Part shown: positions 12,719 through 54,843 of the stretch, piece by piece | How positions within the stretch are numbered: the first letter of the stretch is position 1 | How the letters are laid out: every line of letters begins with the position of its first letter | Program-made: the position numbers and the translations under genes | Virus record (IMG/VR): IMGVR_UViG_3300044630_004720 | DNA length: 64,000 nt | From: a virus | Lineage: Duplodnaviria; Caudoviricetes | Direction: 5' to 3' (one strand) | Notes under the pieces: generated by a model | What the model was told of the DNA's origin: nothing | Seen by the model: only the letters and a program-made list of their open reading frames with translations | Database searches by the model: none

Positions 12719-14134
12719 ATGGCAAAAAAGTTAGGATTAATAGTACCATATAGAAATAGACCTAAACATTTAGAACTATTTCAAAAAAGAGTTACAAGAT
12801 ATCTTGATAGACATAAGATACCGTATGAGATTATCATTGTCGAACAAGATGAAGCTAAACTTTTTAATAGAGGTATGCTCCTTAACATTGGTTTTGCTTA
12901 TGCTAAAAAAATGAATTGTGATTATGTGGTTTTTCACGATGTGGATATGGTTCCACTTCACGTGGATTACTCATATTCAAAATTTCCGGTACATTTAGCA
13001 ACAGGGTTTAAACAAGAAGATTGGGAAACACCAAGAATGTTATTTGACACATATTTTGGAGGCGTTACAATGTTCACAGTTGATGACTTTGAAAAAATAG
13101 ACGGATACTCAAACAAATATTGGGGGTGGGGTTATGAAGATGATGATTTGTTATTGAGATGTGTTAAGAAAAAATTAAAGCTAGACACAAAAGTTGTTAA
13201 AAACGTTGGTATTGATGGGCAGAAGTTAAAATTTAACGGATATAACGCATATGTGATTGGTGAAAACAAATTAAACTATAGTAAAGAAAATACAATCTTT
13301 ATTTCTTTTTTTCCAGATGAATTAACTTGTAATCACGAAAAACATAACGACGACTTTTCAATATTTTCAATACCTGGTTTTGATTTTGCAATTTCATATA
13401 ACTCATTTTCAAGATATAACTTTTGTGCATTTGATTCAACTAAGAAACCTATCTATGTTAATTCATTAATCAAAACCAATTACCAAACAAACATAACGAT
13501 TACAATTAATCCCGAGTATAAAAAAATTAGAGTGTTCCAAGATGGACAATTTATAGGAGAAACCGAAGATTTTGATACACTCTACTACTATAAGAAAGAA
13601 AAAAATTTTTATATCGGAGTTGGTAATCCTGAACGAGAAGAAAATCCAAATTATTTCAGAGGATACTTTGATAAATTCATCATATTCAACGATGTACTAA
13701 CTGATGATGAGATTGAACATTTATCAAATAATCACGATGAGGGCGTAATGAAAATGTTTGGTAAAGAAAAACACATTCAACTATACTATAATTCTAAGTT
13801 TGTTGACAATTATCATTTAACAGACTTAACGGGTAATGGTAAACACGGAAAAATAGTTAATTGTGAAATTGTGAATTTGTCATTAGATAATAAAAGGAAA
13901 ATTAATATACCATTTAGAAGAGATTCTGTTTTTATTACCCAACATCACGAAGATAATGGTTTTAGTGGAAACAGATGGAAAACACAAGCAACAAGGTGGA
14001 ATCAATTAAGATACTATAACGAGGTTTCTAAAAATGATGATTTGTTAGATAATGACGGACTATCTACTTTAGAATTTGTGGAGCACGGAAAAACAAAAAA
14101 TAATAATATAACACATATTAATGTAGGAATATGA
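12719..14134 (+). CDS. GT7 (beta-1,4-galactosyltransferase-like) glycosyltransferase with inserted LamG-like domain
   Basis: IVPYRNR, FNRGMLLNIG, FHDVD, YFGGV, GYSNKYWGWGYEDDDL are GT7 hallmarks. A ~230-aa jelly-roll-like insert precedes the terminal GT7 segment. Confidence 0.8.
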   Translation: MAKKLGLIVPYRNRPKHLELFQKRVTRYLDRHKIPYEIIIVEQDEAKLFNRGMLLNIGFAYAKKMNCDYVVFHDVDMVPLHVDYSYSKFPVHLATGFKQEDWETPRMLFDTYFGGVTMFTVDDFEKIDGYSNKYWGWGYEDDDLLLRCVKKKLKLDTKVVKNVGIDGQKLKFNGYNAYVIGENKLNYSKENTIFISFFPDELTCNHEKHNDDFSIFSIPGFDFAISYNSFSRYNFCAFDSTKKPIYVNSLIKTNYQTNITITINPEYKKIRVFQDGQFIGETEDFDTLYYYKKEKNFYIGVGNPEREENPNYFRGYFDKFIIFNDVLTDDEIEHLSNNHDEGVMKMFGKEKHIQLYYNSKFVDNYHLTDLTGNGKHGKIVNCEIVNLSLDNKRKINIPFRRDSVFITQHHEDNGFSGNRWKTQATRWNQLRYYNEVSKNDDLLDNDGLSTLEFVEHGKTKNNNITHINVGI

Positions 14135-15540
14135 GTCACAAATTAGGAATCTGTATACCTTATAGAAATAGGAAACATCATATAGATAAATTAATACCGA
14201 ACCTATCAAAATATTTAACAAAACATAAAATTGACCATAAATTTTATGTTGGACATCAAGTTGATGACAAATTATTTAATAGAGGTGCAATGAAAAACAT
14301 CGCAGCTCATTATGCATTTCAAGAGGGTTGCGACTACATAGCTTGGCACGATGTTGATATGTTACCATATGATGAACAAGGTGTGATTCCTGATTATACA
14401 TATCCTGCCGAACATCCGAGACACATTGCAACAAGACTTTCCAAATACAATTACGGAATATTATATGACCAATACTTCGGAGGAGTGGTTCTTTTCACAA
14501 AAGAACAAGCACTTCAAACAAATGGGTATTCAAATGATTATTGGGATTGGGGTCAAGAAGACGATGATTTATTTTGGAGAGCACATTTTGAAGGGATGAC
14601 AACTGGAAGAGTTATCAAAACTTACCAAAATAAAAAAGTAGCAAACTTTAATGGTGATGATTCTTATTTAGTAATTCCCACAAATAGAGAGTTAAGTTCT
14701 TGTTTACATAATGACCACACAATTACAATAACCTTCAATGCGGAACAACAGGACCACAAAGTTCCAATTTGGTTGGTGGGAGATACTCAAAAGAGATTTG
14801 TAGAATATCCATTACTAAGAAAAGATGGTTCATTTACTTGGGGGATTTCATTCAATAATTCAAGAGCGGTAACAATGTCTCTTTTAGATAGAGAATCAAG
14901 AAATCACTACAATTGGGCAAAACGTTTTGAGGGGATGTGGACACAAGTAACTTTATCATATAATAGTGAGGAAAAGAATGCGTATTTTTACGTAAATGAT
15001 GAATTGATTTCACAGATGAACGGAATAAAACAAGGTATACCGTTCCCTATAGGTAGAGACCTTAAAACACACGATGGTATAAAACCATTTTTATTAGGTT
15101 TTTGTAATCATATGAAAACTTTTTACAAAGGAAAAATTTCTGATGTAAAAATATATGACACATATTTTAGCGACATCAATGAAATGGAATCTAACACTGA
15201 AAATTTAGTAATGGATTTCAATGATGTTAATGAAAAACTGATTAATAACAATGTTACATTCACAAATGAAGACATTGAAATTATAGAGAACATCGTTCCT
15301 TATAGAAAACAAGGAATGTTTTATTGTTTACCACACCAAGACGAAGGTTTTATCAATGGTAAGTGGGCGAAGGGTGAAACAACCGCAAGAAATGAAAAAC
15401 GTTTCGTAACTGAAATGCAACAAAAGAAAATAAATTATAAAGAGGAAGGTTTAAATAAAATTACTGAAGTAACTGAAATTGTTGAACTAGATGAAAAATT
15501 GTATCCAAATACAATGTTCATAAATTGTAAAATGAAATGA
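14131..15540 (+). CDS. GT7 glycosyltransferase with inserted LamG-like domain (paralogue)
   Basis: CIPYRNR, FNRGAMKN, WHDVD, YFGGV, GYSNDYWDWGQEDDDL. The insert has WTQVTLSY...YFYVND...YKGKISDVKIYD. Confidence 0.8.
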   Translation: MSHKLGICIPYRNRKHHIDKLIPNLSKYLTKHKIDHKFYVGHQVDDKLFNRGAMKNIAAHYAFQEGCDYIAWHDVDMLPYDEQGVIPDYTYPAEHPRHIATRLSKYNYGILYDQYFGGVVLFTKEQALQTNGYSNDYWDWGQEDDDLFWRAHFEGMTTGRVIKTYQNKKVANFNGDDSYLVIPTNRELSSCLHNDHTITITFNAEQQDHKVPIWLVGDTQKRFVEYPLLRKDGSFTWGISFNNSRAVTMSLLDRESRNHYNWAKRFEGMWTQVTLSYNSEEKNAYFYVNDELISQMNGIKQGIPFPIGRDLKTHDGIKPFLLGFCNHMKTFYKGKISDVKIYDTYFSDINEMESNTENLVMDFNDVNEKLINNNVTFTNEDIEIIENIVPYRKQGMFYCLPHQDEGFINGKWAKGETTARNEKRFVTEMQQKKINYKEEGLNKITEVTEIVELDEKLYPNTMFINCKMK

Positions 15541-16955
15541 TAGATTTTAATATAACTAAAGATAAACTTAATGGTGTTGGTTGTGGATTTTGCCTCGCAA
15601 AGTGGACACAAGTAACAATGCATTTACACAATGGGACAACCCATTCTTGTCACCACCCGTCACCACATAAGGTACCTTTAGACGAAATCGAGAGGAACTA
15701 CACTGCACTTCACAATAGCAATACAAAAAAGTATGCTCGTAAAGAAATGTTAACGGGTAAGAGACCGAAAGAATGTGGATATTGTTGGAATGTTGAAGAT
15801 AATTCTAATTCATTTTCAGATAGAATATTTAAAAGTGCGGAACCTTGGAGTGAACCATATTTCGATGAAGTATCCAATTTACATTGGAGAGCAGATTACA
15901 ATCCAAAATATGTTGAGGTAAACTTTTCAAATACGTGTAATTTTAAATGTGCCTATTGCGGACCTGAGTACTCTACAAAATGGATGGAGGAAATAAATGA
16001 GTTTGGTGAATATAAATTGGGTTTCGACTATAATGGTATGAAACAAATGGATGACAATAAAACCAGACCATATAAACAAACTGAGTTTAATCCTTATGTT
16101 GAAGCATTTTGGAAATGGTGGCCTGAGTTATATCAGACATTAGATACTTTCAGAATTACAGGTGGAGAACCTTTATTGTCTAAAGATACTTGGAAGGTGT
16201 TAGATAAGATAATTGAAACCGAGGAACCTAATAGAGAATTAAAATTATCGATTAACAGTAATTTAGGAGTTAATGATGAATTGATAGATAGATTAATCTT
16301 AAAATTGGATAAGATAATTAGTGAGGACCGAGTTAAGGAAGTTGTCATCTTTACATCTTGTGATGCGTACGGCAAGCAATCCGAATATGTTAGATACGGA
16401 TTAAACTTTGAACAACTTTTTAGTAACATAGATAAAATTCTAACAGTACTCCCTAAAGTAACTGTCGTCATAATGTCGACGTTTAACATCTTTAGTATAT
16501 TCTCATACGAAATGTTGATAAAGAAGGTGTTAGACCTAAAACTTAAACATTTCAACACCGAAAGATATTGGAATTCGGCACTCATTTTAGACACTTCTTA
16601 TCTTAGGTTCCCTGAGTTCCTAAGTTTCAGAATACTAAAAGGTTTCTTAGATGTTGAGTATTTCAATAGGTGGGAGAAGTTTATGAAATTCAATTCAACC
16701 TACAGAAGTTTAAATTTCTACGAGCAACAAACAATCGATGATGTTGGATTTTCAACCAAAGAGATAGAAAAAATAACGAGAATAAAAGACCTATTCATTA
16801 GTGACTCTAAATCGGATATTTCATTTGATGACAATAAAAGAGATTTTGTGATGTTTATCGATGAATATGAAAAAAGAAGAGGATTGAATTGCCAAGAATA
16901 TTATCCTGAATTAACTGACTTTATAAAAAATATAAGAAATGAGAATAAGATTTAA
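15537..16955 (+). CDS. Radical SAM enzyme with N-terminal Cys-rich (Twitch/SPASM-like) segment
   Basis: CNFKCAYC (CxxxCxxC), RITGGEP, and N-terminal FCLAKW..SCHH..ECGYCW. Confidence 0.85.
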   Translation: MIDFNITKDKLNGVGCGFCLAKWTQVTMHLHNGTTHSCHHPSPHKVPLDEIERNYTALHNSNTKKYARKEMLTGKRPKECGYCWNVEDNSNSFSDRIFKSAEPWSEPYFDEVSNLHWRADYNPKYVEVNFSNTCNFKCAYCGPEYSTKWMEEINEFGEYKLGFDYNGMKQMDDNKTRPYKQTEFNPYVEAFWKWWPELYQTLDTFRITGGEPLLSKDTWKVLDKIIETEEPNRELKLSINSNLGVNDELIDRLILKLDKIISEDRVKEVVIFTSCDAYGKQSEYVRYGLNFEQLFSNIDKILTVLPKVTVVIMSTFNIFSIFSYEMLIKKVLDLKLKHFNTERYWNSALILDTSYLRFPEFLSFRILKGFLDVEYFNRWEKFMKFNSTYRSLNFYEQQTIDDVGFSTKEIEKITRIKDLFISDSKSDISFDDNKRDFVMFIDEYEKRRGLNCQEYYPELTDFIKNIRNENKI

Positions 16956-17682
16956 AGAACCGTATTGGGTAAAATATAAATGGGATTTAGATACTCACCA
17001 CGAGAATCAATATGTTACAAAATTTAATAAAACAGATATTGAAGAAATAAAGACATTATTTCACCAAGAAAAATTTGTTGTAACCATAGAGGCAAGAGTT
17101 TTAGATGTCTATAGTCGAGACAGTGTTTTCGCGTTGTATGGAAAACCTGGAAAGAATATGGGGTTAACATATAATAATGAAAGTAAGATAATGGCATTTG
17201 AATTTTGGACAAAGTCGGATACCGAAGAATGGGATGATTTTAACTTTGTTTCTTTTGATAATGTTAGACCTGAAGATATTAAAAATGGTGTTACATTATC
17301 TGTTGCAAGAAACAAGGATTCATTCACTCTATATAAAAATTTCGAACCTGTAAATAAAATTAGATTTAAGAATAATCTAATTGATGATTACAAATACACT
17401 GGTTTGTTTTTAGGTTGCGGTAATCCCGGTTCTCCCGTTCCTGAACATCGACAACACGGAGAATATGATATCCATCATTTCTCTATTTTACAAAATACTT
17501 CTGACATAAAATATGCAAGAGAAATATACGAATCAAAACCGGAGGTTTTACTAAAGAAACCATTTTATTCTGATATTTTATGTCTTTATAATTTTAAAAC
17601 AATCAACAACATCGGAATCATATTCGATGAATCTAAAAACAATAATTTTTTAGAAAGAGTACCTAACGATTTCGTATTGTAA
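16939..17682 (+). CDS. Stand-alone LamG-like protein related to the GT7 inserts
   Basis: LFLGCGNP matches FYIGVGNP in 12719-14134. Similar beta-strand pattern and terminal xDxSxNxN. Confidence 0.45.
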   Translation: MRIRFKEPYWVKYKWDLDTHHENQYVTKFNKTDIEEIKTLFHQEKFVVTIEARVLDVYSRDSVFALYGKPGKNMGLTYNNESKIMAFEFWTKSDTEEWDDFNFVSFDNVRPEDIKNGVTLSVARNKDSFTLYKNFEPVNKIRFKNNLIDDYKYTGLFLGCGNPGSPVPEHRQHGEYDIHHFSILQNTSDIKYAREIYESKPEVLLKKPFYSDILCLYNFKTINNIGIIFDESKNNNFLERVPNDFVL

Positions 17683-17719
17683 GTATTTTTTTTTATATTT
17701 TAATTAAATTGAAAATATT

Positions 17720-19174
17720 ATGTCTAATGAACTAAGAGAATGGCGAAATAAAAACCTTAATTGTGTAAGTAAAAGTTTCTGTGCTGCTAAATGGTATAAT
17801 GCAAGTTTACATTTGGGACACGGATACACCAATTCTTGCCATTTACCACTCCCACACCCAATTGATTTGGAGGAGATTAAAACAAATCCATCAGCATTAC
17901 ATAACACCAAACATAAGAAAGAAGCACGAAGAATGATGTTGACAGGTATTAGACCTGCTGAATGTTCTTATTGTTGGAAAATTGAAGATATTGGTAGAGA
18001 CAACATATCTGACCGAGTTTATAAGAGTCAGATTTATAGTGAAGAGGACATTGCACTATTGAAAGATATTCCATATGATGAAGATATACTACTTAAAACC
18101 GTAGAGGTAAGCTTTGACAGAATTTGTAATTTTGCTTGTAGTTATTGTAACTCTGGTTATAGTACTACTTGGGCAAAAGACATTAAGAATAACGGAGCAT
18201 ATCAAAAGTTTCAAACAAGTAGTGCAGGTGCTTATTATGCTGACGGGTCTTGGTCTGAAAAGTGGGGTAAATTTAATGAAAAGAACCCATATGTACAGGC
18301 ATTTTTAGAATGGTGGCCTGAACTTTCAAAGACACTACAGGAGATTAGAATTACGGGTGGAGAACCATCACAGAGTCACAATTTTTGGGAGTTTATTGAA
18401 GTAATGAAACAATACCCATCTGAAAATTTAAGACTCGCAGTGAACTCTAATTTGGGTTTAAACGAAGCGACACTTTTCAAACTAGTTAGTATCTCTCACG
18501 AGTTACAAATTAAAGAGTTTGACCTATATACAAGTAATGAATCATTCGGAGCTCACGCTGAATATATCAGAGATGGTTTGAAATATGATGTTTGGAGAAG
18601 TAATATGATTAAGTTCATTGAGAACGCTAAATTCCGTTCATTAACCATTATGATGACGATTAATAGTTTATGTTTATTCAGTATCACTGAGTTCTTGGAT
18701 GATATGATTATACTGAAAGAGAAATATGGACCTAACAGACCTAATGTTGATTTTAACATATTGAGATGGCCATCATTTATGTCTCCATTATCACTACCCG
18801 ATAATGTTAAATCAAAATTACATCTTAAATTAAAAACTTGGTACGATAAACATAAAGATAGTCCACTTTTTAGCATTCACGAGAAAGCTCAAATCGAAAG
18901 ATTAATTGATTATATCGAAGTTGTTAGAAGAGGTCATAACCAAACTGAGTTGGATTTTGATAAACAGGCTCACGACTTCAAAAGTTTTTATGAACAATAT
19001 GATGTTAGAAGAAATAAAGATTTCAGGGCAACATTTACAGACCCTGAATTACTTGAGTGGTATGATAGTATCAAAGTAGATTATTCAATCCCTGATGTTG
19101 AAGTAACAAACGGAGCAATAACACATTATGAACCTGGTGAGTATGTGTCAGATGTTAAAACAAATATCATTTAA
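17720..19174 (+). CDS. Radical SAM enzyme with N-terminal Cys-rich segment (paralogue)
   Basis: CNFACSYC, RITGGEP, FCAAKW..SCHL..ECSYCW. Confidence 0.85.
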   Translation: MSNELREWRNKNLNCVSKSFCAAKWYNASLHLGHGYTNSCHLPLPHPIDLEEIKTNPSALHNTKHKKEARRMMLTGIRPAECSYCWKIEDIGRDNISDRVYKSQIYSEEDIALLKDIPYDEDILLKTVEVSFDRICNFACSYCNSGYSTTWAKDIKNNGAYQKFQTSSAGAYYADGSWSEKWGKFNEKNPYVQAFLEWWPELSKTLQEIRITGGEPSQSHNFWEFIEVMKQYPSENLRLAVNSNLGLNEATLFKLVSISHELQIKEFDLYTSNESFGAHAEYIRDGLKYDVWRSNMIKFIENAKFRSLTIMMTINSLCLFSITEFLDDMIILKEKYGPNRPNVDFNILRWPSFMSPLSLPDNVKSKLHLKLKTWYDKHKDSPLFSIHEKAQIERLIDYIEVVRRGHNQTELDFDKQAHDFKSFYEQYDVRRNKDFRATFTDPELLEWYDSIKVDYSIPDVEVTNGAITHYEPGEYVSDVKTNII

Positions 19175-20460
19175 TGAAATTAGTATTCGAAGATATTGGA
19201 AATCTACATAACTTTAAAAGTTGTCCTGATGTAAACCCATCAGGAATTAAAAGATTTACATATGCTCCTTTAATCAATGCGACTAATATGTTCTTCAGTT
19301 TCAGTAGAACTGAATCTTTTTTAAAGTTCATTGAATTTAATCCCGAAGTTGAAAACTATATTATACCGGCAGCAGTAAATCATAGTCCTGATGATTGGAC
19401 AGGGTACAATGATAAAGTTAAAAGTTTATTTGAATACCTAAATCCGAAGTACATCAAAGACTTAAGAAATAAGAAAGCTTTGTTATTATTGGACCAAAGT
19501 TTTGAAGGATATCAGACAAGTTGGTTATGGGACTTTTTCCACACACACTGCAAACAATACGATGTGCCACCATCAAGTATCATTTATGTGACAGGTAATA
19601 TGATTGCAGATGAGACATATGAAAAGTTTTGTTATGAAAATGATATCCAAGATAAAATGAAAGTCATTCCATATGCTCATTTTGAATTGGACGTTGGAAT
19701 GACTTGTTATCATATGGACCAAACGGGATTGTTACCTAATTTCAACACACATTTAAATTACAAGAAAAAAAATAAAAAAAATATAAAAACGTTTTCTTGT
19801 TTAAATAAGAGAATTAGACCTCATAGGGTATGGTTCTATAAGTATATGTTTGAAAATGACATTATTAAAGATGGGTTAGTGAGTATGAACGAATTCTCAA
19901 AACACCAATACCCATTTGAAAATAATCTTATTGACTTAGATGTGATTGATAAGATAAGTGAAAACTTACCGTTATTGATTTATGATAAACGCAACAATGA
20001 ACTTGACGATAACTATTACATTAGAAGATTAAACGAACAGATTTGTTTAGATAGTTTTATTAGTGTTGTTAGTGAAGCACATTGTGGAGATAGTGATGAG
20101 ACAATGTTTTTAAGTGAAAAACTTTTTAAACCGATTGCGTGTCGTCACCCTTGGATGGTTATGGGTAATAAGGATAGTTTATCGATGATGAAGAAAATGG
20201 GATATAAAACATTTTCCAATTTTGTTAACGAAGACTACGATAGTTTACCAACACACGAAAGAATGTTATCGATTATTGAAAGTATAAAAAAAGTAATCGA
20301 TGTTAAAGATAAAATTGAGTGGTACGAATCAACAAGAGAAATTGTTGAACATAACCACAAAAACTTAATTGATAAATTATATAAACTTCCTGAATCATTT
20401 GTTGAGGTATTGAAATATTACAATGAATATTTTACAGGAGAAAAAAACAAACTAATATGA
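19174..20460 (+). CDS. GT10/exostosin-like GT-B-fold putative glycosyltransferase (SEK family, copy 1)
   Basis: CLNKRIRPHR ... ISVVSE ... FLSEKLFKPIACRHPWMVMG. Confidence 0.5.
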   Translation: MKLVFEDIGNLHNFKSCPDVNPSGIKRFTYAPLINATNMFFSFSRTESFLKFIEFNPEVENYIIPAAVNHSPDDWTGYNDKVKSLFEYLNPKYIKDLRNKKALLLLDQSFEGYQTSWLWDFFHTHCKQYDVPPSSIIYVTGNMIADETYEKFCYENDIQDKMKVIPYAHFELDVGMTCYHMDQTGLLPNFNTHLNYKKKNKKNIKTFSCLNKRIRPHRVWFYKYMFENDIIKDGLVSMNEFSKHQYPFENNLIDLDVIDKISENLPLLIYDKRNNELDDNYYIRRLNEQICLDSFISVVSEAHCGDSDETMFLSEKLFKPIACRHPWMVMGNKDSLSMMKKMGYKTFSNFVNEDYDSLPTHERMLSIIESIKKVIDVKDKIEWYESTREIVEHNHKNLIDKLYKLPESFVEVLKYYNEYFTGEKNKLI

Positions 20461-20861
20461 GCGAAAGAAAATATTTACCAACACTATCGGAGTTAATAGA
20501 TAGATTGAGCATTGTACAATTAAAAGAAGTTTTTATTTCAGAACACAAAGATGAATATAGTCAAGAAATTGGAGACATATTACACGACATTCAATTACTC
20601 CTTAATCAAAATGATGACAAAATTACCTCCGAGACTATTAGAGCTATTGTTGTTTTATCTCAGATGAATCTTCATATTTGGCACAACGAGTCAAATTATA
20701 GGAAAGGAATTAGAGATGGTAATAACTTAGAACTAACTCACGGTTTGAATGGTATTAGAAACACTGCTAAGAATAAAATACAAGAGATTGTGGGTGGAAG
20801 AAAGGATTATAAAATTGACTGTTTAGCCGCAGAGTTTAAAGACTGGGAAATAAGTTGGTAG
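20457..20861 (+). CDS. DUF6165-like helical protein
   Basis: LSELIDRLSIVQLKE...LHIWHNESNYRK...NGIRNTAKNKI resembles this family, often seen near sugar-transferase genes. Confidence 0.45.
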   Translation: MSERKYLPTLSELIDRLSIVQLKEVFISEHKDEYSQEIGDILHDIQLLLNQNDDKITSETIRAIVVLSQMNLHIWHNESNYRKGIRDGNNLELTHGLNGIRNTAKNKIQEIVGGRKDYKIDCLAAEFKDWEISW

Positions 20862-21689: not shown

Positions 21690-21717
21690 AAAAAGGGACT
21701 TAATAGTCCCTTTTTTT
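21690..21717. terminator. Bidirectional intrinsic terminator between convergent genes
   Basis: aaaagggact-taat-agtccctttt with an A tract before and a T tract after. Confidence 0.85.
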
Positions 21718-22264
21718 ATGCCTCATAATATAACTCGGGGTATTCTACAATTACATTGATACCACCATTTTCATAACAGTATTCATAGAGGTCCTCAATC
21801 GAATCCCATTTTTTTAAATCAAAGAACCCAATATTTGGACAAAGTTTTCTATATTCTTCTATGTAATTTCCTCTATGTTGATGACCCGGGTCCAAAGGTT
21901 TATCCGAACCCTTACCTAATCTTATAATCATATTTGGTTTCCAATCACCCTTACTCATTAAACCTATTTTGTCTACGTGATTAACCAATTGGTTTGTTGC
22001 ACAAATAATAAAATCCCAACGAGGATAGAATGTAATTACAAATTTACCTGCCATTGCCATTCCTAAACTCATACCCATTTGAGATTCTTCCATAACAGGA
22101 AGTTCAATCATTTTAGACTTAGGTACTTCTCCTAATGTTGTACTCATCGGATTACCCGGAAATAATATTTGTTGACCAATGAATATTGTATCGTCTTTTT
22201 TTCCTAAAACTGACATTGCATTTGTTAATGCGTCTTTATATCTTGTGTATTGTGGTGAACTCAT
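21716..22264 (-). CDS. TPP-dependent E1 beta-like subunit (transketolase pyrimidine-binding domain only)
   Basis: IELPVMEESQMGMSLGMAMAG, FIICATNQLVNH, GHQH. At 182 aa it has no C-terminal transketolase domain. Confidence 0.8.
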   Translation of the reverse strand: MSSPQYTRYKDALTNAMSVLGKKDDTIFIGQQILFPGNPMSTTLGEVPKSKMIELPVMEESQMGMSLGMAMAGKFVITFYPRWDFIICATNQLVNHVDKIGLMSKGDWKPNMIIRLGKGSDKPLDPGHQHRGNYIEEYRKLCPNIGFFDLKKWDSIEDLYEYCYENGGINVIVEYPELYYEA

Positions 22265-23070
22265 AATGACTCAATTTTTTTAATTATTGCATCTGCAATT
22301 AATTTATGACACTCCTTAGATGGGTGAGAATCTACGGGTGGATTTGGACCTAAACCTTCAGTATCGTATCTAACCAATAAATGAGGATACAATCTTTGTA
22401 TATAATCTAAATTTGTATATTGTTTTCCATCATAATCAAAGTATATCATTCTTTCGTGAAGATATGGGTCCTCAACTACATATTTCACATAATCATCTTG
22501 CCAATTCCATATTAAACATTTAATACCTAACGCTTCATATTTTTCAAACAATTGCTTGATGCGACTAACTTGTTGTTTACAATGTTCAACATACCATTCA
22601 GGAAATCCACCGATATTATTATCTTCCATCCATTCAAAAAATAATTTTTGTGTTCCTTTATCAGAACCAATCCAATTCATTTTGTGGTTGTAACCTTTGT
22701 GTGTAAAGTTAAATGAAGACCTACCTGGTTGAGTAGTTTGAAATATAATATATCCAATTTCTTCAGGTTGGAATGTCTCTTGAATTAAATGGGTATAATG
22801 ATGGTTTTTATCAAAACATATATCAACGAACTTTAAAGATTCATCTTCACTACCACCATTCTCCTTTTTTACTAGTTCAAATGTTTCAAAGTGATTTGCA
22901 ACTAACCTCGGATATCGAATTGTCGACATATATCTTCTATGTGCGTCATTCACTAAAGTATTATCAAATTGTTCAGGTGCAGGTTGTTTTAATGTACTCA
23001 GATTGGAGTAATAGTATAACCCTTGACCCCAAGTGAAAGAACAACCGGCAAATATCATTCCTTTTTTCAT
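22261..23070 (-). CDS. SGNH/GDSL-like protein (copy 1)
   Basis: IFAGCSFTWG, NGGS, DSHP near the C-terminus. Confidence 0.55.
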   Translation of the reverse strand: MKKGMIFAGCSFTWGQGLYYYSNLSTLKQPAPEQFDNTLVNDAHRRYMSTIRYPRLVANHFETFELVKKENGGSEDESLKFVDICFDKNHHYTHLIQETFQPEEIGYIIFQTTQPGRSSFNFTHKGYNHKMNWIGSDKGTQKLFFEWMEDNNIGGFPEWYVEHCKQQVSRIKQLFEKYEALGIKCLIWNWQDDYVKYVVEDPYLHERMIYFDYDGKQYTNLDYIQRLYPHLLVRYDTEGLGPNPPVDSHPSKECHKLIADAIIKKIESL

Positions 23071-24041
23071 TTAAATTCTTCTTTGTTTTTTAGATACCAA
23101 TCATAGGCCATTTTTAGACCTGATTCTAATGATGTTTTAGCTTCCCAACCCAATTGGTTTTTAATTTTATTTGAGTCAATTTTTCTTGTTGGAATCATTG
23201 ATGGTTTACCTGAAATAAATTCAGTAGGTGCGTCGTATTGTGCAACACGTTTCATAATATCTAACACTTCTAAAACTGAATACACTTTATTTGAACCAAT
23301 GTTGTATACCTCAAACATAACTTCTTCTTTTTCCATCACAACTTGTAACGCCTCAACAAAGTCTTCTATGTATAGTAAATCTCTTAGTTCAGTGCCATCA
23401 CCCCAAACAGGTATCGGATTCATTTTATCTGCAACTTTACGAATTGTTGCAGGTGTTACGTGACACTTATTGAAATCGTACTTATCGTGAGGGCCAAACA
23501 AATTCGCTGGTCTAATAACTGTACACTTCATTGTTCGTGGTAAGTATTTTGCATAGAGTTCACATTGAACTTCAGCGTAACGTTTCATCCAACCAACTGG
23601 AAAATAAACGGGATAAGGTTCATCAAATAAGAAATCCGTTTCAACAACCGGTTCATCACCTTTTGGTGGATACACAGTGTTTGATGATATAAATATGTAA
23701 TGTTTCACACCATTTCTCCAAGCAGTATCGATAAGGAAGTTATTCATTGCTACGTTAGGTGTAACGTGAGCTAATGGGTCAACAACAGTATCCACGGCAT
23801 TTGAAGTTGACGCTGCGGCGTGAAAAACAACATCCACATCTTTTGTTGCCAACATACAACCTTCGTATGTTTGTAAATCACAATGAGTATATTCAACGTT
23901 ATCGTATGTTTGTCTAACACCTCTATTGTGTAGATTTACTCTTAAATTTGTGTAACCTTCTTTAATAAGTCTTGCGGTTAAATTCTGACCCACTAAACCA
24001 GAACCACCCGTAATTAAAATTTTTGCGTTTTTATTTATCAT
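23067..24041 (-). CDS. Extended SDR, GDP-L-fucose synthase-like NDP-sugar epimerase/reductase (atypical active site)
   Basis: ILITGGSGLVG, RPANLFGPHD, VWGDG...RDLLYIED. VGWMK stands where YxxxK is expected. Confidence 0.75.
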   Translation of the reverse strand: MINKNAKILITGGSGLVGQNLTARLIKEGYTNLRVNLHNRGVRQTYDNVEYTHCDLQTYEGCMLATKDVDVVFHAAASTSNAVDTVVDPLAHVTPNVAMNNFLIDTAWRNGVKHYIFISSNTVYPPKGDEPVVETDFLFDEPYPVYFPVGWMKRYAEVQCELYAKYLPRTMKCTVIRPANLFGPHDKYDFNKCHVTPATIRKVADKMNPIPVWGDGTELRDLLYIEDFVEALQVVMEKEEVMFEVYNIGSNKVYSVLEVLDIMKRVAQYDAPTEFISGKPSMIPTRKIDSNKIKNQLGWEAKTSLESGLKMAYDWYLKNKEEFK

Positions 24042-25801
24042 ATAAATTTAGTTTTTCCATCGAAATTATTTTCCAATTCTTTACCATATGTCGTATCAAC
24101 ATCAGGTTCCCATACCATCTCAACTTTTTTATTTCCCACGTATCTTGGAATTATTTTAAAGGGTCCAACACTAATGAAATTTATGTATGTAAACCTTTTA
24201 AAATCATTTTTAACAGCCTCAACTGCGTGATTCACATTATTTTTAGAAAAATCAAGAATCGCAAAATTCACGTCAACAGGAACAACTTCGTCATAGTTAC
24301 CTTTATCTTGCAATATTAACTTTCCGCCACCATCAATATATTCTTTTTCAGGTGTTAAGTAAATCAATACCACACAATATCTTGTAGGATTTTGCCCATC
24401 GATGTGTGACTCAATAAAATCACCATTTTCATATATTGTGATACCATCATCATTGTGTGTGTTCCATTCTTTCAAATCAGGGTAAAGTTTATATAGGAAT
24501 CTTTGAATTTTTTCCCTAAAGTATTCTAAAAATTCCAACCACTCCCCACTTTTATAATTCAATTCCCACCAATGCTGTATAGTTTCCCAACCATTATCCG
24601 ATATGAATTGTCTTCTCTCCTCAATTTCTTCCTGAGTCTCTAAACTCCTTTTAAAGTTTAAAATTTCTTCATCTGTAACGGTATTAGGAACTCTATATTC
24701 ATATCTGTATGAGTAATATTTTTTATCTTCAGATAATTTAAAAATTTTATCACAAATTTCTTTGTGTTTTTCCCATTCGTCTTTTCTTATGAACTCACTA
24801 ACTTTTCCAACATAGTATCCCTTTTCAAAAAATTCATTCAAATCAACATTCAATGGGTTCTCACCATAATGTCTTGTATAAAATTCATAGGTTAACCTCA
24901 ATCCCTCCTTAAAACTATGTTTTGGTAATAATGCATAACCAGTTTGTCTATGTACAGACATTTTTCTATGCATATCACCATTTGGTTTCGTCTTATCCCA
25001 TTCGATTGATAATTTCTTACCACTCACCTCAATTATATTTTTAATCATTGATTCTATAGTAATAGACTCACCAGAACCAACGTTAACAACATCGGCGATT
25101 TGTCTTCTATAAGATTCTAACACCGCGGTTGCAACATCTTTAGCATACACAAAATCTCTTTGAGGTGTTCCATCACCCCAAGCAATTATAGTGTCACCAT
25201 CTTTCGCCTCACATACCTTTTTTATGGTACTCGCAATTACAGTACCATTACCACTAAAATCATCGTACTCACCAAAAATATTAGCCGGTCTAATTATAGT
25301 GAATTTTCTATAATTGTATTGTTTTTTATATGCACCTAACAAAAGTTCACCCATTCTTTTCGACCAAGAAGGAAACCAATCGTTTTCAGATGGTAATGTT
25401 TTCCAAACATCATCTTCGTAAAATGTTTCCGCAGGAGCATATACACCAACAGAACTTAGAAACACTAACCAAACATTATTTTTTGCGCACTGATGAATAA
25501 TTTCTGTATTAATTTTAAATGAAGGATATAAGAAATCAACAGGTTGTTGTTTTGCTTTAAGTGGTGAACCCTTTACACCAAAACAATTAAATACCGCATC
25601 TGGTCTCTCCTCCTCAAATATTTCTTTAATTAATGATTCAACCATTAAGTCTACATTTAAAAACTTAAAGTATTCAGATTCAGGTAAATCATCTGATTTT
25701 TTTATATCTACGCCGATAACATAGTCGCCTCTTTCCAAAGTTTCTTTAACAAGATGTACTCCGACTAAACCTGAACATCCGGTAATTAATATTTTTTTCA
25801 T
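24038..25801 (-). CDS. Fusion: NDP-sugar epimerase/reductase (extended SDR) + C-terminal 2OG-Fe(II) oxygenase
   Basis: N-part: ILITGCSGLVG, RPANIFG, WGDGTPQRDFVY. C-part: IESHIDG...GGGKL...HAVEAV...R. Confidence 0.75.
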   Translation of the reverse strand: MKKILITGCSGLVGVHLVKETLERGDYVIGVDIKKSDDLPESEYFKFLNVDLMVESLIKEIFEEERPDAVFNCFGVKGSPLKAKQQPVDFLYPSFKINTEIIHQCAKNNVWLVFLSSVGVYAPAETFYEDDVWKTLPSENDWFPSWSKRMGELLLGAYKKQYNYRKFTIIRPANIFGEYDDFSGNGTVIASTIKKVCEAKDGDTIIAWGDGTPQRDFVYAKDVATAVLESYRRQIADVVNVGSGESITIESMIKNIIEVSGKKLSIEWDKTKPNGDMHRKMSVHRQTGYALLPKHSFKEGLRLTYEFYTRHYGENPLNVDLNEFFEKGYYVGKVSEFIRKDEWEKHKEICDKIFKLSEDKKYYSYRYEYRVPNTVTDEEILNFKRSLETQEEIEERRQFISDNGWETIQHWWELNYKSGEWLEFLEYFREKIQRFLYKLYPDLKEWNTHNDDGITIYENGDFIESHIDGQNPTRYCVVLIYLTPEKEYIDGGGKLILQDKGNYDEVVPVDVNFAILDFSKNNVNHAVEAVKNDFKRFTYINFISVGPFKIIPRYVGNKKVEMVWEPDVDTTYGKELENNFDGKTKFI

Positions 25802-25802
25802 T

Positions 25803-27077
25803 TTATCTTTTTATAAGTGATGCAAAGAACTGAGCATCGTCAGTGTTATTTAGTAAGCTAATTAATCTATTTTCATTCTCTAAAAATCTATCTTCTAATT
25901 CAGGATAGATTTTCATAATACTCTGTTTATTTTTATATAATCTTTTTATTTCTTCGAATAATTTAAAGAGTCTTTTTCTATCATCACTTTCACTATCATA
26001 AGAATGGTCAATGACATCTTCAAATAAATCAAAACCATATACGTCTTTGGTTATTTTTGCGTGATTTGCACTGGCAACATATAATGGAAATTGATGAAAA
26101 AAGAATGGTTTGAATGTCTTTTCACTCAAGTGGACAACATCTCTTCTACTAAAACAAGATTCGGTTGTTATGTTGATATAACTATTTTGATACGTCTGTT
26201 TATCATAAACCTGATTCCATTCAATGTGCATAGGTTCTTGATTCACGTGACACCTCCAATCCCTATCAAACCAATCTAACCATTCTTCATATCTACTTTT
26301 TTTAATGTCAATCTCCTCAAAAAAATCAATATCAGATTTCATTTTTTTAATTTCACTTTCAGTAAAAATGAACCTATAAAAATTATTAATGTTTGAATAT
26401 TTCATCTCATCTTTATGGTTCCACCCCATAACCAAAGACCAATCAACCTCCTGAAGTAATTTATTTTTCCGTAATAAAACCAACAATGCGTACCGATGTA
26501 GTTTTGGTGTTCTATTATGACACATAAAGAAATTCGATTCCTTTTCTGGTTTGAAATCAATTGAATGTAAATCCAATTCTCTAGCAACTTTTATCGGTAA
26601 AAATTTTACAGTATGGAAATTTAAAGATAATTTGTTTCTTTTCTTGTATTCAGATAAATTGTAATTGTTATTAATTACATAAAACCTGTCGGGTTCTAAA
26701 CCTAAAGAAATTATTTTTTTATTTAATAATATTATAGTTTCTTCAGTTTCTATTTCGTGTTCATTAATGAATATAACAAATAGGTTTTTGTTATCTTTCA
26801 TTGATTTAATTACAGTTTCAGGTAGAGGTATTTCGTTTCTCGCCTTTAATGCCCACCCTAATTCGTGAATATGTCCAATAACATAATAGAAATTCTCATC
26901 GGGGTGTTTACCAACGTCAGTAAGTCTAAACTTTTTGAAATTTTTAAAATTAAAAAATTGTAAAAGTCCATCAAACCTTCTAAATGAGTTTTGCCCAAAT
27001 TGTTTTTCACAATTTATATTTGGCTCTAAATCTTTATCAGGCCAATTATCATAAACTAAATTTAAAAAATTACCCAT
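25803..27077 (-). CDS. GT10/exostosin-like SEK family protein (copy 2)
   Basis: CHNRTPKLHR, INITTES, HLSEKTFKPF. Start re-set to ATG MGNFLN. Confidence 0.5.
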   Translation of the reverse strand: MGNFLNLVYDNWPDKDLEPNINCEKQFGQNSFRRFDGLLQFFNFKNFKKFRLTDVGKHPDENFYYVIGHIHELGWALKARNEIPLPETVIKSMKDNKNLFVIFINEHEIETEETIILLNKKIISLGLEPDRFYVINNNYNLSEYKKRNKLSLNFHTVKFLPIKVARELDLHSIDFKPEKESNFFMCHNRTPKLHRYALLVLLRKNKLLQEVDWSLVMGWNHKDEMKYSNINNFYRFIFTESEIKKMKSDIDFFEEIDIKKSRYEEWLDWFDRDWRCHVNQEPMHIEWNQVYDKQTYQNSYINITTESCFSRRDVVHLSEKTFKPFFFHQFPLYVASANHAKITKDVYGFDLFEDVIDHSYDSESDDRKRLFKLFEEIKRLYKNKQSIMKIYPELEDRFLENENRLISLLNNTDDAQFFASLIKR

Positions 27078-27691
27078 TTCCCTGTTCCGTAGTGCGGCCA
27101 CTGCTTATTATAATTATACCAAATCACATCCTGAGGTGGTTCGGATTTTACTTCCCAAGTCTCAACTGTCGGTGTGTTTGTAGATACACCATTATCCTCA
27201 ACAACAAATACAATCGGCAAATCAAAATTCTTTGCATACTTATAATTTTCCATAAAAGTACCAGTCTCAAACGCCATATCACCAACAAAACACCACACCT
27301 TATCTTTACTACCTTCTTGTTTTAACGCCATAGCAACTCCAACGGCAATTGGAATAGCACCACCAACTATTGCAGTTGAATAAAACTTTTCTTTTTTATT
27401 AACAATAGTGATTGACCTACCAGCTAAAATTTCATCTTCTAACCATTCAGACGGTACCCCTTTAAGTAATGCGTGATAGTGAGACCTCCAAGTGGAAAAA
27501 ACCCAATCACTCTTTTTAACTCGTTTAAAAATTTCTATTAGTTGTTCTTCATTTCCTCCACTTAAATGTATTGGACCCCTTACCCTTCCTGCTTCCCAAT
27601 GGTCTGCCATTTTTCTCTCAAATCCAATTAATCCGTGTTTATCCCATAATGGTTTACTTATCACAGGATATTGTTCTAAATTTTTTATCAT
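27062..27691 (-). CDS. TPP-dependent E1 alpha-like subunit (dehydrogenase E1 / TPP-binding domain)
   Basis: GPIHLSGGNEE, STWRSHYHAL, AIVGG.IPIAVGVA, VGDM...VVEDN (GDG..N TPP motif variant). Confidence 0.85.
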   Translation of the reverse strand: MIKNLEQYPVISKPLWDKHGLIGFERKMADHWEAGRVRGPIHLSGGNEEQLIEIFKRVKKSDWVFSTWRSHYHALLKGVPSEWLEDEILAGRSITIVNKKEKFYSTAIVGGAIPIAVGVAMALKQEGSKDKVWCFVGDMAFETGTFMENYKYAKNFDLPIVFVVEDNGVSTNTPTVETWEVKSEPPQDVIWYNYNKQWPHYGTGKWVIF

Positions 27692-28233
27692 TTATCTCTT
27701 TTTTGTAATATTGGGTTATTTGTTGGCCATTCCATTTGATATTCTGGGTCATTCCATTTAACAACTCCTTGTTCATTTGCATCGACATAACCATCTTTAT
27801 AAAATAAGTTATAATGGAATATACAATCAGTTAATGCGAAATGTCCATTTGCAAATCCTGGCGGAACCAACACTTGATTTCTATCTTTTTCAGTTATCAT
27901 AAATGATTCCCACTCACCAAATGTTGGTGATTTTTCTCTCATATCTAAAACAACTAAATAAATGTCACCAACGGCAGCTTGAACCAATTTCCAAGTTTTG
28001 TTATCATAATGTAATCCTCTTAATACTCCCTTATATGATTTTGAAAATCTACCGTGAATACTAATTTCAGATTTTTCATAATGAATGTGCCTCATCACCG
28101 GATGTTCTTCACTATGAAAAGTTGTGAATATTTCACCCCTATATTCTCTATAAATTGAAGGTGTGAAAATAGGTACTTGATACCCGAATTTTTTTGATGG
28201 AGTTTCTTTGAACTCATCCCATTTATTACTCAT
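27688..28233 (-). CDS. rmlC: dTDP-4-dehydrorhamnose 3,5-epimerase-like cupin
   Basis: GVLRGLHY, KLVQ...G.IY.V.LD.R..SPTFGEW, VPPGFANGH, WNDP. Confidence 0.85.
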   Translation of the reverse strand: MSNKWDEFKETPSKKFGYQVPIFTPSIYREYRGEIFTTFHSEEHPVMRHIHYEKSEISIHGRFSKSYKGVLRGLHYDNKTWKLVQAAVGDIYLVVLDMREKSPTFGEWESFMITEKDRNQVLVPPGFANGHFALTDCIFHYNLFYKDGYVDANEQGVVKWNDPEYQMEWPTNNPILQKRDK

Positions 28234-28234
28234 A

Positions 28235-29203
28235 CTATGTCTGATTTGCATAACCTAATGGAAAACCGTTTCTAAACTCTGAAGTCATTTTAGGTATCAA
28301 CACCTGATATGTTTTCATTAATTCTTTAATTCCATCATCTAATGACCAATTTGGTCTCCAACCCGTATTCTCAATCTTTTCGTTTGATACGATATAGTCT
28401 CGTTTATCGGGGTCTTCATAATAATCAGAATATGTGATTGCAAAATCAGGTACATACAATTGTATTTTTTCTAACAATTCTTGTTTACTTAAATTTGCAT
28501 CACTTAATCCAACATTATATACATTCTCTTTCATTCTATCATAGTTATCCAACGCAAATGTGAATACATCACCAACATCTTGAATATGAATGAAATTTCT
28601 TTTAAAATGTTTCTCAAATACAACAATGTATTTGTCCGTCATTGCTTTATAAACAAATTCATTAACTAATAAATCAGTTCTCATCCTCGGTGATGAACCA
28701 AATACCGTTGCCAATCTGAAGCAAATAGCGTTAGTATAATTAAGAAGTTTCTTTTCGGCTGCACACTTTGTTTCACCATATACCGATATCGGATTTAATG
28801 GTGATTCCTCGGTACAGAACTTATCATCCTTACCAATACCATAACCACTATTAGTGTTAGGGTATATAATGTATTGATTAGGACTAAGATAATCCATCAA
28901 GTTAGTTATTTGAACATAGTTAATCTGATTTGCTAATTCAGGGTCTTTCTTACAAGCGGGAAACCCCACAATTGCCGCTAATGGAATTATCACATCGTGA
29001 GATTTCACTTCCCTCTCTAATAATTTTGTGTTTCTAACATCACCATAGATGAAATTATAATTTGGGTTATAAGTAAATTGTAACGGGGATATTTGATTAA
29101 AAACCAAATTATCAATGACAGTTACCTTATGACCTAAATCTAAAAATTTTTTGGTTATAACGGAACCTAAATAACCCGCACCACCTGTTATCAATATCTT
29201 CAT
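28235..29203 (-). CDS. NAD-dependent NDP-sugar epimerase/dehydratase (extended SDR)
   Basis: MKILITGGAGYLGS, PLAAIVG, YGETK (YxxxK), FRLATVFG. Confidence 0.85.
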   Translation of the reverse strand: MKILITGGAGYLGSVITKKFLDLGHKVTVIDNLVFNQISPLQFTYNPNYNFIYGDVRNTKLLEREVKSHDVIIPLAAIVGFPACKKDPELANQINYVQITNLMDYLSPNQYIIYPNTNSGYGIGKDDKFCTEESPLNPISVYGETKCAAEKKLLNYTNAICFRLATVFGSSPRMRTDLLVNEFVYKAMTDKYIVVFEKHFKRNFIHIQDVGDVFTFALDNYDRMKENVYNVGLSDANLSKQELLEKIQLYVPDFAITYSDYYEDPDKRDYIVSNEKIENTGWRPNWSLDDGIKELMKTYQVLIPKMTSEFRNGFPLGYANQT

Positions 29204-29256
29204 ATAAACGTTGTAATTCACTTTAAATTTAAATAAAAATTTTCTATATTTAAACA

Positions 29257-34943: not shown

Positions 34944-35381
34944 ATGATATACTGGTTCACAGGACAACCCGGCGCAGGTAAAACTACCCTATCAAAACAT
35001 CTGATTTCGTATTTAGAAAATACCGAAAAAGTGATTCACATTGATGGGGATGACCTAAGATTAATTTTTGAAAACAAAGACTTTTCAGAAACAGGCAGAA
35101 GAAAAAACATAGAAAGAGCACAAGACATTGCTCGTTTTATGAATGAAAAGGGATACACAGTTGTGGTGTCATTAGTTTCTCCATATAAAGATATGAGAGA
35201 TAACTTTAAAACTCACAATTCGGTGATTGAATTTTATGTACACACAACTGAAACAAGAGGAAGAGAATCGTTTCACGTGTCAAATTACGAACCCCCAACA
35301 GAAAATTTTATTGATATTAATACCACTAACAAAGATGAAAGAGAATCTTTCATCGAATTAATTAAATTTATAGATTTATGA
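34944..35381 (+). CDS. cysC: Adenylyl-sulfate (APS) kinase
   Basis: WFTGQPGAGKTTL P-loop, IDGDDLR, DFSETGRRKNI, SLVSPY..R, YEPP. Confidence 0.9.
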   Translation: MIYWFTGQPGAGKTTLSKHLISYLENTEKVIHIDGDDLRLIFENKDFSETGRRKNIERAQDIARFMNEKGYTVVVSLVSPYKDMRDNFKTHNSVIEFYVHTTETRGRESFHVSNYEPPTENFIDINTTNKDERESFIELIKFIDL

Positions 35382-35761
35382 AAAAGTATGCATTGTACAT
35401 CGGAAGATGGCAAAATTGGCACGCAGGACACGAATGGTTAATTAGCCAACAATTAGATAAAGGGAAAAATGTATGGGTGGCTATTAGGGATGTTGAAGTT
35501 GATGAGAACAACCCTAAAACCGCACAAGAAGTATTCCAAGAACTAATCAAAGTACCATTTTTTAATGAGAATTTTGATAAAATACTTCTCTCAATTATAC
35601 CTGATATCGAATCCGTAAACTATGGTAGAGGTGTAGGTTATGAGGTGATTTATCATAATCCCCCATCGGATATTGAAAGTATCAGCGGAACCAAAATAAG
35701 ACAAGGTTATATGGACAGCAACGGAGACGTTATTGTCTATTCAGTAGATGATGTGAAATGA
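35378..35761 (+). CDS. HIGH-family nucleotidylyltransferase (candidate minimal sulfate adenylyltransferase)
   Basis: YIGRWQNWHAGH (HxGH) and ISGTKIR. Overlap-coupled to cysC. Confidence 0.65.
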   Translation: MKKYALYIGRWQNWHAGHEWLISQQLDKGKNVWVAIRDVEVDENNPKTAQEVFQELIKVPFFNENFDKILLSIIPDIESVNYGRGVGYEVIYHNPPSDIESISGTKIRQGYMDSNGDVIVYSVDDVK

Positions 35762-53839: not shown

Positions 53840-53842
53840 ATT

Positions 53843-54841: not shown

Positions 54842-54843
54842 TG

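Follow-up and report, generated by a model that had tools for sequence, protein, structure and literature searches.

The window analyzed here, a 64,000-nucleotide stretch of DNA from a large, uncultured lake phage (Caudoviricetes; IMG/VR record IMGVR_UViG_3300044630_004720), carries on its minus strand a cassette of eight genes, two of which, alpha and beta, encode short proteins related to the E1 component of pyruvate dehydrogenase (PDH). Judged by their sequences, these two proteins form one minimal thiamine diphosphate (ThDP) enzyme that is not a PDH, and in our best reading, to which we give a probability of about 0.5, this enzyme would be a pyruvate-dependent carboligase that adds a branch to a keto-sugar.

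Domain composition of alpha and beta and their relation to pyruvate dehydrogenase

Domains of the cassette proteins were assigned by Pfam and NCBIfam profile searches. Alpha matched E1_dh (4e-18, 65.8 bits) over profile positions 9-172 of 300, and beta matched Transket_pyr (3e-07, positions 5-136 of 174) as well as the PDH E1 beta profile (1.5e-09), with no Transketolase_C domain detected by Pfam. The 402-aa protein gp198 of cyanophage S-SM2 matches residues 16-207 of alpha with its N-terminal half (45% identity) and beta with its C-terminal half (31% identity). A search limited to longer, metagenomic proteins retrieved about 390 fused proteins (E<=1e-20), most of those listed being 380-413 aa long and carrying both E1_dh and Transket_pyr. 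Because these fused homologues join them in one chain, alpha and beta belong together, and their sequences identify them as the diphosphate-binding (PP) and pyrimidine-binding (PYR) halves of one E1-type ThDP enzyme. The earlier note on this DNA had called both proteins unusually short, as indeed they are with 209 and 182 aa, compared to 316-391 aa in the canonical E1 alpha open reading frames (ORFs) examined and to 325 and 345 aa in the paulomycin proteins Pau11 and Pau12.

The residues expected of a ThDP enzyme are present in both halves. The ThDP/Mg2+ motif of alpha reads G137-D138-M...E165-D166-N167, the family form being GD(M/G)...(E/L)(D/N)N, and H42, R69, D138 and H200, the last in a short C-terminal tail, are invariant in 23 diverse members, across which the diphosphate motifs (HL.GGNE and R69) are also kept. 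In beta, E59, R82, H96 and H130 are invariant in 25 members; E59, the cofactor-activating Glu, aligns with the activating Glu of E1 beta, and R82 is specific to the family. Both general marks of ThDP enzymes, a PP motif of the GDG-X(25-30)-N type and a PYR activating Glu, were thus found. Comparison with ten relatives gave dN/dS values of 0.07-0.22 for alpha and 0.07-0.21 for beta, with dS close to saturation, and both genes are under purifying selection. On the evidence of the motifs, of E59 in beta and of this selection, the pair is catalytically competent, and a pseudogene or relic is ruled out by the selection together with the invariant catalytic residues. The family comprises 130 clusters at 50% identity (E<1e-30), and more than 545 IMG/VR stretches match it among the matches listed. 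The alpha homologues P0134 and P0174 carry an intein or LAGLIDADG insertion, the intein of P0134 lying near or at the ThDP-binding loop.

The top profile matches of the pair are PDH E1 alpha and beta, and public sources name proteins of this family "pyruvate dehydrogenase E1 alpha", as would suit an auxiliary metabolic gene of energy metabolism, i.e., the E1 of a pyruvate or acetoin dehydrogenase whose E2 and E3 are those of the host. However, the scores lie far under the family cut-offs, with 94.9 bits against 393.85 for alpha (TIGR03182) and 37.2 bits against 321 for beta (NF006667). Alpha is devoid of the C-terminal third of an E1 alpha, and the Transketolase_C domain absent from beta is the one by which E1 beta docks E2. 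Identity of alpha to canonical E1 alpha amounts to 27-35%, and in a maximum-likelihood tree, whose root is unreliable as the transketolase outgroup is very long, canonical E1 alpha formed one group separated from the minimal family by a branch of 1.72 (SH-aLRT 91). Neither 2-oxoacid_dh (PF00198) nor lipoyl (PF00364) domains were found in three relatives (245-336 kb), of which two are rated 100% complete by CheckV, and in the loci examined alpha and beta never adjoin E2 or E3 and always lie within glycan clusters. The score, the full length, the Transketolase_C domain and, in the relatives, the E2 partner that mark the E1 of 2-oxo acid dehydrogenases (PDH, branched-chain 2-oxo acid dehydrogenase or BCKDH, AcoAB) are therefore all missing. 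From its sequence and setting the pair is not a pyruvate dehydrogenase, in agreement with the earlier note, and we consider a role in energy metabolism highly improbable. The warning given in that note, that such genes would be mis-annotated, is justified by the public naming, and surveys of viral auxiliary metabolism would count the family as an energy gene even though it is seated in glycan operons.

The pair also differs from other ThDP families. No Transketolase_N match was obtained with Pfam for alpha or beta, and DXP_synthase_N reached 27 bits on alpha compared to the 65.8 bits of E1_dh, so that the pair is assigned neither to the transketolases nor to 1-deoxyxylulose-5-phosphate synthase (DXS). 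PF02776 (TPP_enzyme_N) did not match either, and the domain order is PP then PYR, which separates the pair from YerE-type enzymes. The phage pair represents a lineage of truncated E1 enzymes, with the halves either split or fused, which abounds among aquatic phages and occurs in a few oligotrophic bacteria.

Genomic linkage and the neighboring cassette enzymes

Linkage in viruses was counted in 80 IMG/VR loci with an alpha identity of 59-89% (for the cassette genes, see Table 1). Beta was found in 76 of these loci, always downstream of alpha and on the same strand, and an RmlC-like gene in 69, in 56 of which it lies directly upstream of alpha. The short-chain dehydrogenase/reductases (SDRs) SDR322, SDR324 and the SDR of the fusion type occur in about 60 loci each. 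The gap between alpha and beta ranges from 6 nt to 9.2 kb, with the halves adjacent in only 6/76 loci, and in the smallest inserts there is just one gene, for either a GDP-fucose-synthase-like (GFS-like) SDR or the glycosyltransferase (GT). Since the spacing varies to this extent, the four genes lying between alpha and beta here represent one state of a slot that varies from locus to locus and is flanked by the two halves; the separation noticed earlier is true of the window, whereas in other lineages the halves are adjacent or fused. Natural fusions were also found that join alpha to an SDR324-type SDR (P0277, 36% identity to SDR324), to a radical SAM domain (P0279) or to an FkbM methyltransferase.

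Close bacterial relatives (45-54% identity) were restricted to seven loci among about 185,000 prokaryotic species, the next matches being ordinary E1 alpha proteins with 27-35% identity. These loci belong to SAR11, SAR116, Verrucomicrobiota, a gammaproteobacterium and an uncultured metagenome-assembled genome (MAG); alpha and beta are adjacent in all seven, and homologues of SDR322 (about 50% identity) accompany them in six, as they do in 60 of the 80 viral loci counted above. One SAR11 locus, with the order GT4, SIS, alpha, beta, GHMP kinase, DegT, B12 radical SAM, RmlC, Cj1427-like SDR, NTP_transferase and GT2, is situated between suf, glnA and tig genes and is therefore chromosomal. A 588-kb MAG contig (L165) carries an aldo-keto reductase (AKR), alpha, beta, a GHMP kinase, two GT2, a malic enzyme, HAD and NTP_transferase, together with RmlC, a Cj1427-like SDR and a second E1 pair of full length (310/312 aa), so that a full-length and a minimal pair share one glycan cluster (L165:2858-4735 and 14013-15149). 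The malic enzyme among its glycosyltransferases may provide a dedicated supply of pyruvate or NADPH. More distant members have SPASM or B12 radical SAM enzymes and GT2s as neighbors; on one groundwater contig (L003:698-7452), a fused alpha-beta gene stands between two B12-binding radical SAM enzymes, with a DegT aminotransferase, a SIS isomerase and a NUDIX protein nearby. The cyanophages S-SM2 and P-TIM68 share the same fused gene, annotated as "transketolase central region-containing protein". A reductase, be it an SDR, an AKR or a zinc-dependent alcohol dehydrogenase (Zn-ADH), was found beside the pair everywhere.

The neighbors of alpha and beta in the cassette resemble enzymes that act on GDP-sugars. 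SDR322 is 57% identical over 302 of its 322 aa to PDB entries 6VO6 and 6VO8 (E 5e-115), the former of which we take to be Cj1427, the GDP-heptose C4-dehydrogenase. The RmlC-like cupin matched dTDP_sugar_isom (5.6e-33) and, among PDB entries, the Campylobacter jejuni heptose epimerases 7ANG, 8DCL, 7M14 and 8DCO best (E about 3e-35, compared to about 3e-23 for true dTDP RmlC). GDP-fucose synthase was the top PDB match both of SDR324 (4e-33) and of the SDR part of the fusion protein, in which Pfam detected Epimerase (7e-41) and 2OG-FeII_Oxy_3, a 2-oxoglutarate (2OG) oxygenase domain that retains HxD...H; this fusion occurs in 13 of 59 loci, the SDR standing alone in the rest. Because SDR322, the cupin, the two GFS-like SDRs and the GT10-like transferase described below all match GDP-sugar enzymes, the chemistry of the cassette would be that of a GDP-4-keto-sugar and not a 6-deoxyhexose route. 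The acceptor proposed in the earlier note, an NDP-4-keto-6-deoxyhexose made by a 4,6-dehydratase, is accordingly to be replaced, probably by a GDP-4-keto-heptose or -hexose formed by the Cj1427-type C4-dehydrogenase.

Neither of the two GFS-like SDRs has the canonical active site. In SDR324, a Val stands opposite Y136 of the GDP-fucose synthase alignment and VGWMK replaces YxxxK, and in the fusion protein the catalytic Tyr is likewise replaced (PSWSK), which puts in doubt that they are plain C4-reductases of the Cj1428 type. Proteins of the SDR324 type conserve a Tyr at K-7, seven residues before the Lys, and the SDRs with VGWMK or PSWSK and this SDR324-type Tyr look like a distinct extended-SDR subfamily.

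Two further cassette proteins were assigned by means other than domain profiles, given that Pfam searches up to E=1 returned nothing usable for the glycosyltransferase (PF00852 included) or the 269-aa protein, nor for proteins of 134, 423 and 428 aa. The AF2 model of the glycosyltransferase (pLDDT 87.4) shows a GT-B fold by Foldseek and VIA-align, with VIA Z scores of 10.3-11.5 to GT10 alpha1,3-fucosyltransferases of H. pylori, human and plant, and the sequence contains a TES...ITEK motif in which E306, E319 and K320 are invariant and which resembles the (H/Y)ITEK-type nucleotide-binding motif of GT10. The label "GT10-like" given earlier is thus moderately supported by model and motif for a GT-B transferase, with the reservation that T4 beta-glucosyltransferase (BGT) ties for the top score. 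GT10 enzymes use GDP-beta-L-sugars, and this type of donor fits a 3,5-epimerised GDP-sugar. The 269-aa protein, present in 36/80 loci, has an N-terminal GCS and a C-terminal DSH, and among its language-model (Atlas) neighbors 10-20% of the members are annotated with Lipase_GDSL or DUF6071; the former designation as SGNH is a weak lead that draws on this minority annotation.

The ORF map and the domain assignments confirmed the eight-gene cassette that had been described, with stops and starts that overlap or abut, and the start of SDR322 was placed at the ATG at 29203 (MKILITGG) rather than at the GTG at 29221. The two boundaries of the cassette had been read as a bidirectional terminator and a divergent promoter gap. 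The terminator is plausible, since the hairpin, AAAAAGGGACT-TAAT-AGTCCCTTTTT, lies between an A-run and a T-run. At the other end the AT-rich gap between divergent genes is real, and it holds no promoter consensus above chance: a sigma-70 scan gave no excess over shuffled sequences, and the Bacteroidota -7 motif TAnnTTTG was absent from the gap and not enriched in the window. A nucleotide search with the cassette against 50,697 phage records returned zero matches, and no tRNAs were found in the window.

Table 1. Features of the cassette, its boundaries and other regions of the window.
Feature	Coordinates	Strand	Description	Basis
Terminator	21690-21717		Plausible bidirectional intrinsic terminator between convergent genes, 11-bp stem	Hairpin with A-run and T-run
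Beta	21716-22264	-	PYR half of ThDP enzyme, 182 aa	Transket_pyr
269-aa protein	22261-23070	-	Possibly SGNH/GDSL-like esterase or acyltransferase (weak)	Language-model neighbors
SDR324	23067-24041	-	GDP-fucose-synthase/GME-like SDR whose active-site Tyr is displaced; candidate ketoreductase for the branch or C4	PDB
SDR-2OG fusion	24038-25801	-	GDP-fucose-synthase-like SDR fused to 2OG-Fe(II) oxygenase	Pfam, PDB
Glycosyltransferase	25803-27077	-	GT-B, GT10-like, about 424-432 aa; probable GDP-L-sugar transferase	Predicted fold, motif
Alpha	27062-27691	-	PP half of ThDP enzyme, 209 aa	E1_dh
RmlC-like cupin	27688-28251	-	Predicted epimerase (dTDP_sugar_isom) of GDP-4-keto-heptose 3- or 3,5-epimerase type	Pfam, PDB
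SDR322	28235-29203	-	Predicted Cj1427-type GDP-sugar C4-dehydrogenase forming the 4-keto sugar, 322 aa	PDB similarity
Intergenic gap	29204-29256		53 nt, AT-rich, between divergent genes; promoter presumed	Sequence
Radical SAM genes	15537-19174	+	Two genes of about 480 aa
134-aa protein	20457-20861	+	Distantly DUF6165/DUF4254-like
Two small proteins	34944-35761	+	145-aa APS-kinase-like P-loop protein and 127-aa HIGH-motif nucleotidyltransferase-like protein	Marginal Pfam support for the 127-aa protein
Second glycan block	52119-59241	-	Galactosyltransferase-like protein, two GT2, two GT4-like glycosyltransferases, another extended SDR with canonical YxxxK

The window as a whole is rich in glycan genes, with GT7-LamG transferases, the two radical SAM enzymes, a PhyH dioxygenase, a carbamoyltransferase, DUF6734 proteins, GT2/GT4-type transferases and giant fibre-like ORFs, besides the second minus-strand block listed in Table 1. 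The two radical SAM genes occur with the cassette in 36/80 loci, often directly upstream of RmlC-alpha. The 134-aa protein, with 72-90% identity across relatives and more than 60 invariant residues, of which many are polar, was found with alpha and beta in 40/80 loci, often directly upstream of RmlC or alpha; its model is a four-helix bundle for which the PDB search gave no match, and the protein probably takes part in the cassette pathway as an enzyme or partner so far unrecognised. The extra N-terminus of homologue P0130 was examined as a fused copy of this protein and is not one. The 145-aa and 127-aa proteins, which might serve in sugar activation or in the supply of PAPS, accompany the cassette in 11-13 of the 80 loci.

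Proposed pathway and alternative chemistries

E1-type enzymes decarboxylate a 2-oxo acid to give a ThDP-bound acyl anion which, in the absence of an E2, needs another electrophile. In the cassette, a sugar ketone is the obvious acceptor because a 4-keto-forming dehydrogenase, a 4-keto-dependent epimerase and adjacent or fused reductases are constantly present, and the fusions of alpha to SDR, radical SAM and FkbM domains link the pair to the tailoring of nucleotide sugars. No SIS, GHMP kinase or NTP_transferase was found in the complete phage relatives, and the phage would therefore start from a nucleotide sugar of the host, presumably GDP-D-glycero-D-manno-heptose, provided that the host makes it, or GDP-mannose. 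SDR322 would oxidise C4 of this GDP-sugar as a ping-pong dehydrogenase of the Cj1427 type, and the RmlC-like cupin would then epimerise C3 and/or C5 of the 4-keto sugar. Alpha and beta would assemble into a minimal E1-type enzyme made of PP and PYR domains only, which would decarboxylate a 2-oxo acid, most likely pyruvate, and transfer the C2 unit onto the sugar ketone, leaving an acetyl-branched tertiary alcohol. The GFS-like SDRs could subsequently reduce the new ketone, a step equivalent to that of YerF or Pau7, and/or C4, with further tailoring by the 2OG domain, and the GT10-like enzyme would move the finished GDP-L-sugar to an acceptor of the phage or the host. Of this scheme, the domain identities, the relation of split to fused forms, the conservation, the gene linkage and the absence of E2 are observed, and donor, acceptor, branch position and order of the steps are inferred.

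Several observations weigh against this proposal. The C. jejuni enzymes Cj1427, Cj1430 and Cj1428 work without a ThDP enzyme, and the co-occurrence of their relatives with alpha and beta may only mark a shared glycan cluster. As both GFS-like SDRs are devoid of the canonical catalytic Tyr, their role as reductases is uncertain. In the phylogeny, which had been suggested as a check against true PDH E1 and sugar-branching pairs, the family separated from canonical E1 alpha, as described above, and it did not group with the sole stand-in for the branching pairs on the tree, the full-length 310-aa E1 alpha of the L165 cluster, which placed with canonical E1 on a long branch. Finally, a kinase and/or a SIS isomerase stands beside the pair in SAR11, in the MAG and in the cyanophages, and one natural fusion (P0211) joins alpha to an APH-type kinase, both of which hint at sugar-phosphate chemistry.

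These last hints would be accounted for if the pair acted as a minimal carboligase resembling transketolase or DXS and made a ketose or aldose phosphate, such as sedoheptulose-7-P or a longer one, for a route to the GDP-sugar through SIS isomerase, kinase and nucleotidyltransferase. The gene orders SIS-alpha-beta-GHMP kinase in SAR11 and AKR-alpha-beta-GHMP kinase in L165 would suit such a route, as would the carbohydrate kinase, nucleotidyltransferase and GmhA that adjoin the fused gene of S-SM2 and P-TIM68. The sequence of the pair is nevertheless of E1 type, with E1_dh at 65.8 bits and no match to Transketolase_N; one SAR11 locus (L168) has, besides alpha and beta, a separate split transketolase next to a kinase; the complete phage relatives keep alpha and beta in the absence of the sugar-activation genes; and the other fusions of alpha point to nucleotide-sugar tailoring. 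We regard this route as quite unlikely. A different ThDP reaction on a sugar nucleotide, be it the extension of a side-chain aldehyde (C6/C7), the use of another donor in place of pyruvate (hydroxypyruvate or, as with ErwE, longer hydroxy-keto acids), branching at C3 or the decarboxylation of a keto-acid sugar, would share every link to nucleotide-sugar enzymes with keto-sugar branching. It would also agree with the SPASM/B12 radical SAM enzymes, the most constant neighbors of the distant members, which could create other carbonyls or extend chains, with the Zn-ADH directly upstream in the cyanophages and with the documented diversity of donors among YerE-like enzymes. The characterised E1-type sugar branchers, in contrast, use only pyruvate and make C2 branches, and the tight coupling of RmlC and alpha favors a ring 4-keto intermediate, so that we hold such variants to be rather unlikely.

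The branching of a keto-sugar with pyruvate thus remains our best reading, as the chemistry that fits best, for which the alphaKADH2 enzymes give a precedent and which suits the glycan context; the claim of branched-sugar synthesis made in the earlier note is partly supported, with a different acceptor. In a wider and more tentative form, which we would put a little below even odds, no E1-type thiamine enzyme smaller than the pair would be known, and as a carboligase carried by a virus it would convert a GDP-4-keto-hexose or -heptose into undescribed C-branched GDP-octoses or -nonoses for GT10-like transfer to virion fibres or the surface of the infected cell, with alpha and beta bracketing a swappable tailoring slot of 1-8 genes and with the same family in glycan islands of SAR11, SAR116 and Verrucomicrobiota and in cyanomyophages. 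The present analysis adds the identification of the Cj1427 and GDP-4-keto-heptose epimerase relatives, the natural fusions, the chromosomal context in SAR11, measurements of the variable slot that separates alpha from beta and the missing sugar-activation genes. If GDP-keto-sugar branching is true, the family would be a new and very compact class of biocatalysts forming C-C bonds, and it would point to unknown branched sugars on aquatic phages that are abundant and on bacteria of the SAR11 type, for which recognition between phage and host is decided by surface glycans. Through the linked Cj1427-type dehydrogenase, a defined acceptor substrate can be prepared in the laboratory, which renders the idea directly testable.

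Comparison with known systems

With the canonical E1 enzymes (PDH, BCKDH, AcoA/AcoB) the phage pair shares the fold family, the ThDP/Mg motif and the activating Glu of beta. It differs from them in the absence of the alpha C-terminal region, of the Transketolase_C domain of beta and of E2/E3, in its 27-35% identity and in its separate clade. The fused proteins of S-SM2 (gp198) and P-TIM68 are members of the same family in which alpha and beta form a single chain of 380-402 aa within a cyanophage sugar island. Their neighbors are a Zn-ADH, a carbohydrate kinase, nucleotidyltransferases and GmhA, and not the Cj1427-like and RmlC-like genes of the cassette.

We know of no previous link between the families of the C. 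jejuni heptose modification and a ThDP enzyme. The cassette has in common with that pathway an SDR related to 6VO6 (57%), a cupin related to the GDP-4-keto-heptose epimerases and GFS-like SDRs comparable to Cj1428. On the other hand, the ThDP enzyme, the 2OG oxygenase and the GT10-like transferase of the cassette have no counterpart in C. jejuni, the phage relatives encode no genes for GDP-heptose supply, and the reductase-like SDRs of the phage have a non-canonical active site. In C. jejuni, capsular heptose is modified by the C4-dehydrogenase Cj1427, the 3,5-epimerase Cj1430 and the C4-reductase Cj1428 without any ThDP enzyme (PMC10680097).

The logic proposed for the cassette is the same as that of YerE/YerF in yersiniose and ErwE/ErwF in erwiniose synthesis. 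YerE joins a 2-oxo acid to a 4-keto sugar nucleotide to form an acyl-branched tertiary alcohol, and the NAD(P)H-dependent reductase YerF then acts on the branch. The architecture of YerE is not homologous to that of the phage pair, as YerE is a single chain of the decarboxylase superfamily with the order PYR-TH3-PP, contains FAD and uses a CDP-3,6-dideoxy-4-keto acceptor.

The closest precedent is given by the alphaKADH2 E1-type pairs of the aldgamycin, kibdelomycin, paulomycin and avilamycin pathways, which attach pyruvate-derived C2 branches at C3 or C4 of a keto-sugar; KbDH of kibdelomycin has been assayed in vitro, and in paulomycin the AKR Pau7 reduces the acetyl branch after the branching step. 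The comparison was made by lengths, descriptions and gene context, the full-length E1 alpha of L165 standing in for these pairs on the tree, where it does not group with the phage family. The known pairs are of full length and belong to actinomycete antibiotic clusters acting on dTDP/NDP-deoxysugars or attached sugars, whereas the phage family consists of PP and PYR domains only and is found in phages and in marine and freshwater bacteria, together with GDP-heptose-type enzymes. AviB1/AviB2, Pau11/Pau12, AlmDI/DII and KbDH-alpha/beta are, like alpha and beta, two-subunit E1-type enzymes without E2/E3 in sugar clusters, with keto-sugar-forming enzymes and ketoreductases adjacent, so that the gene context characteristic of alphaKADH2 is found again around the phage pair.

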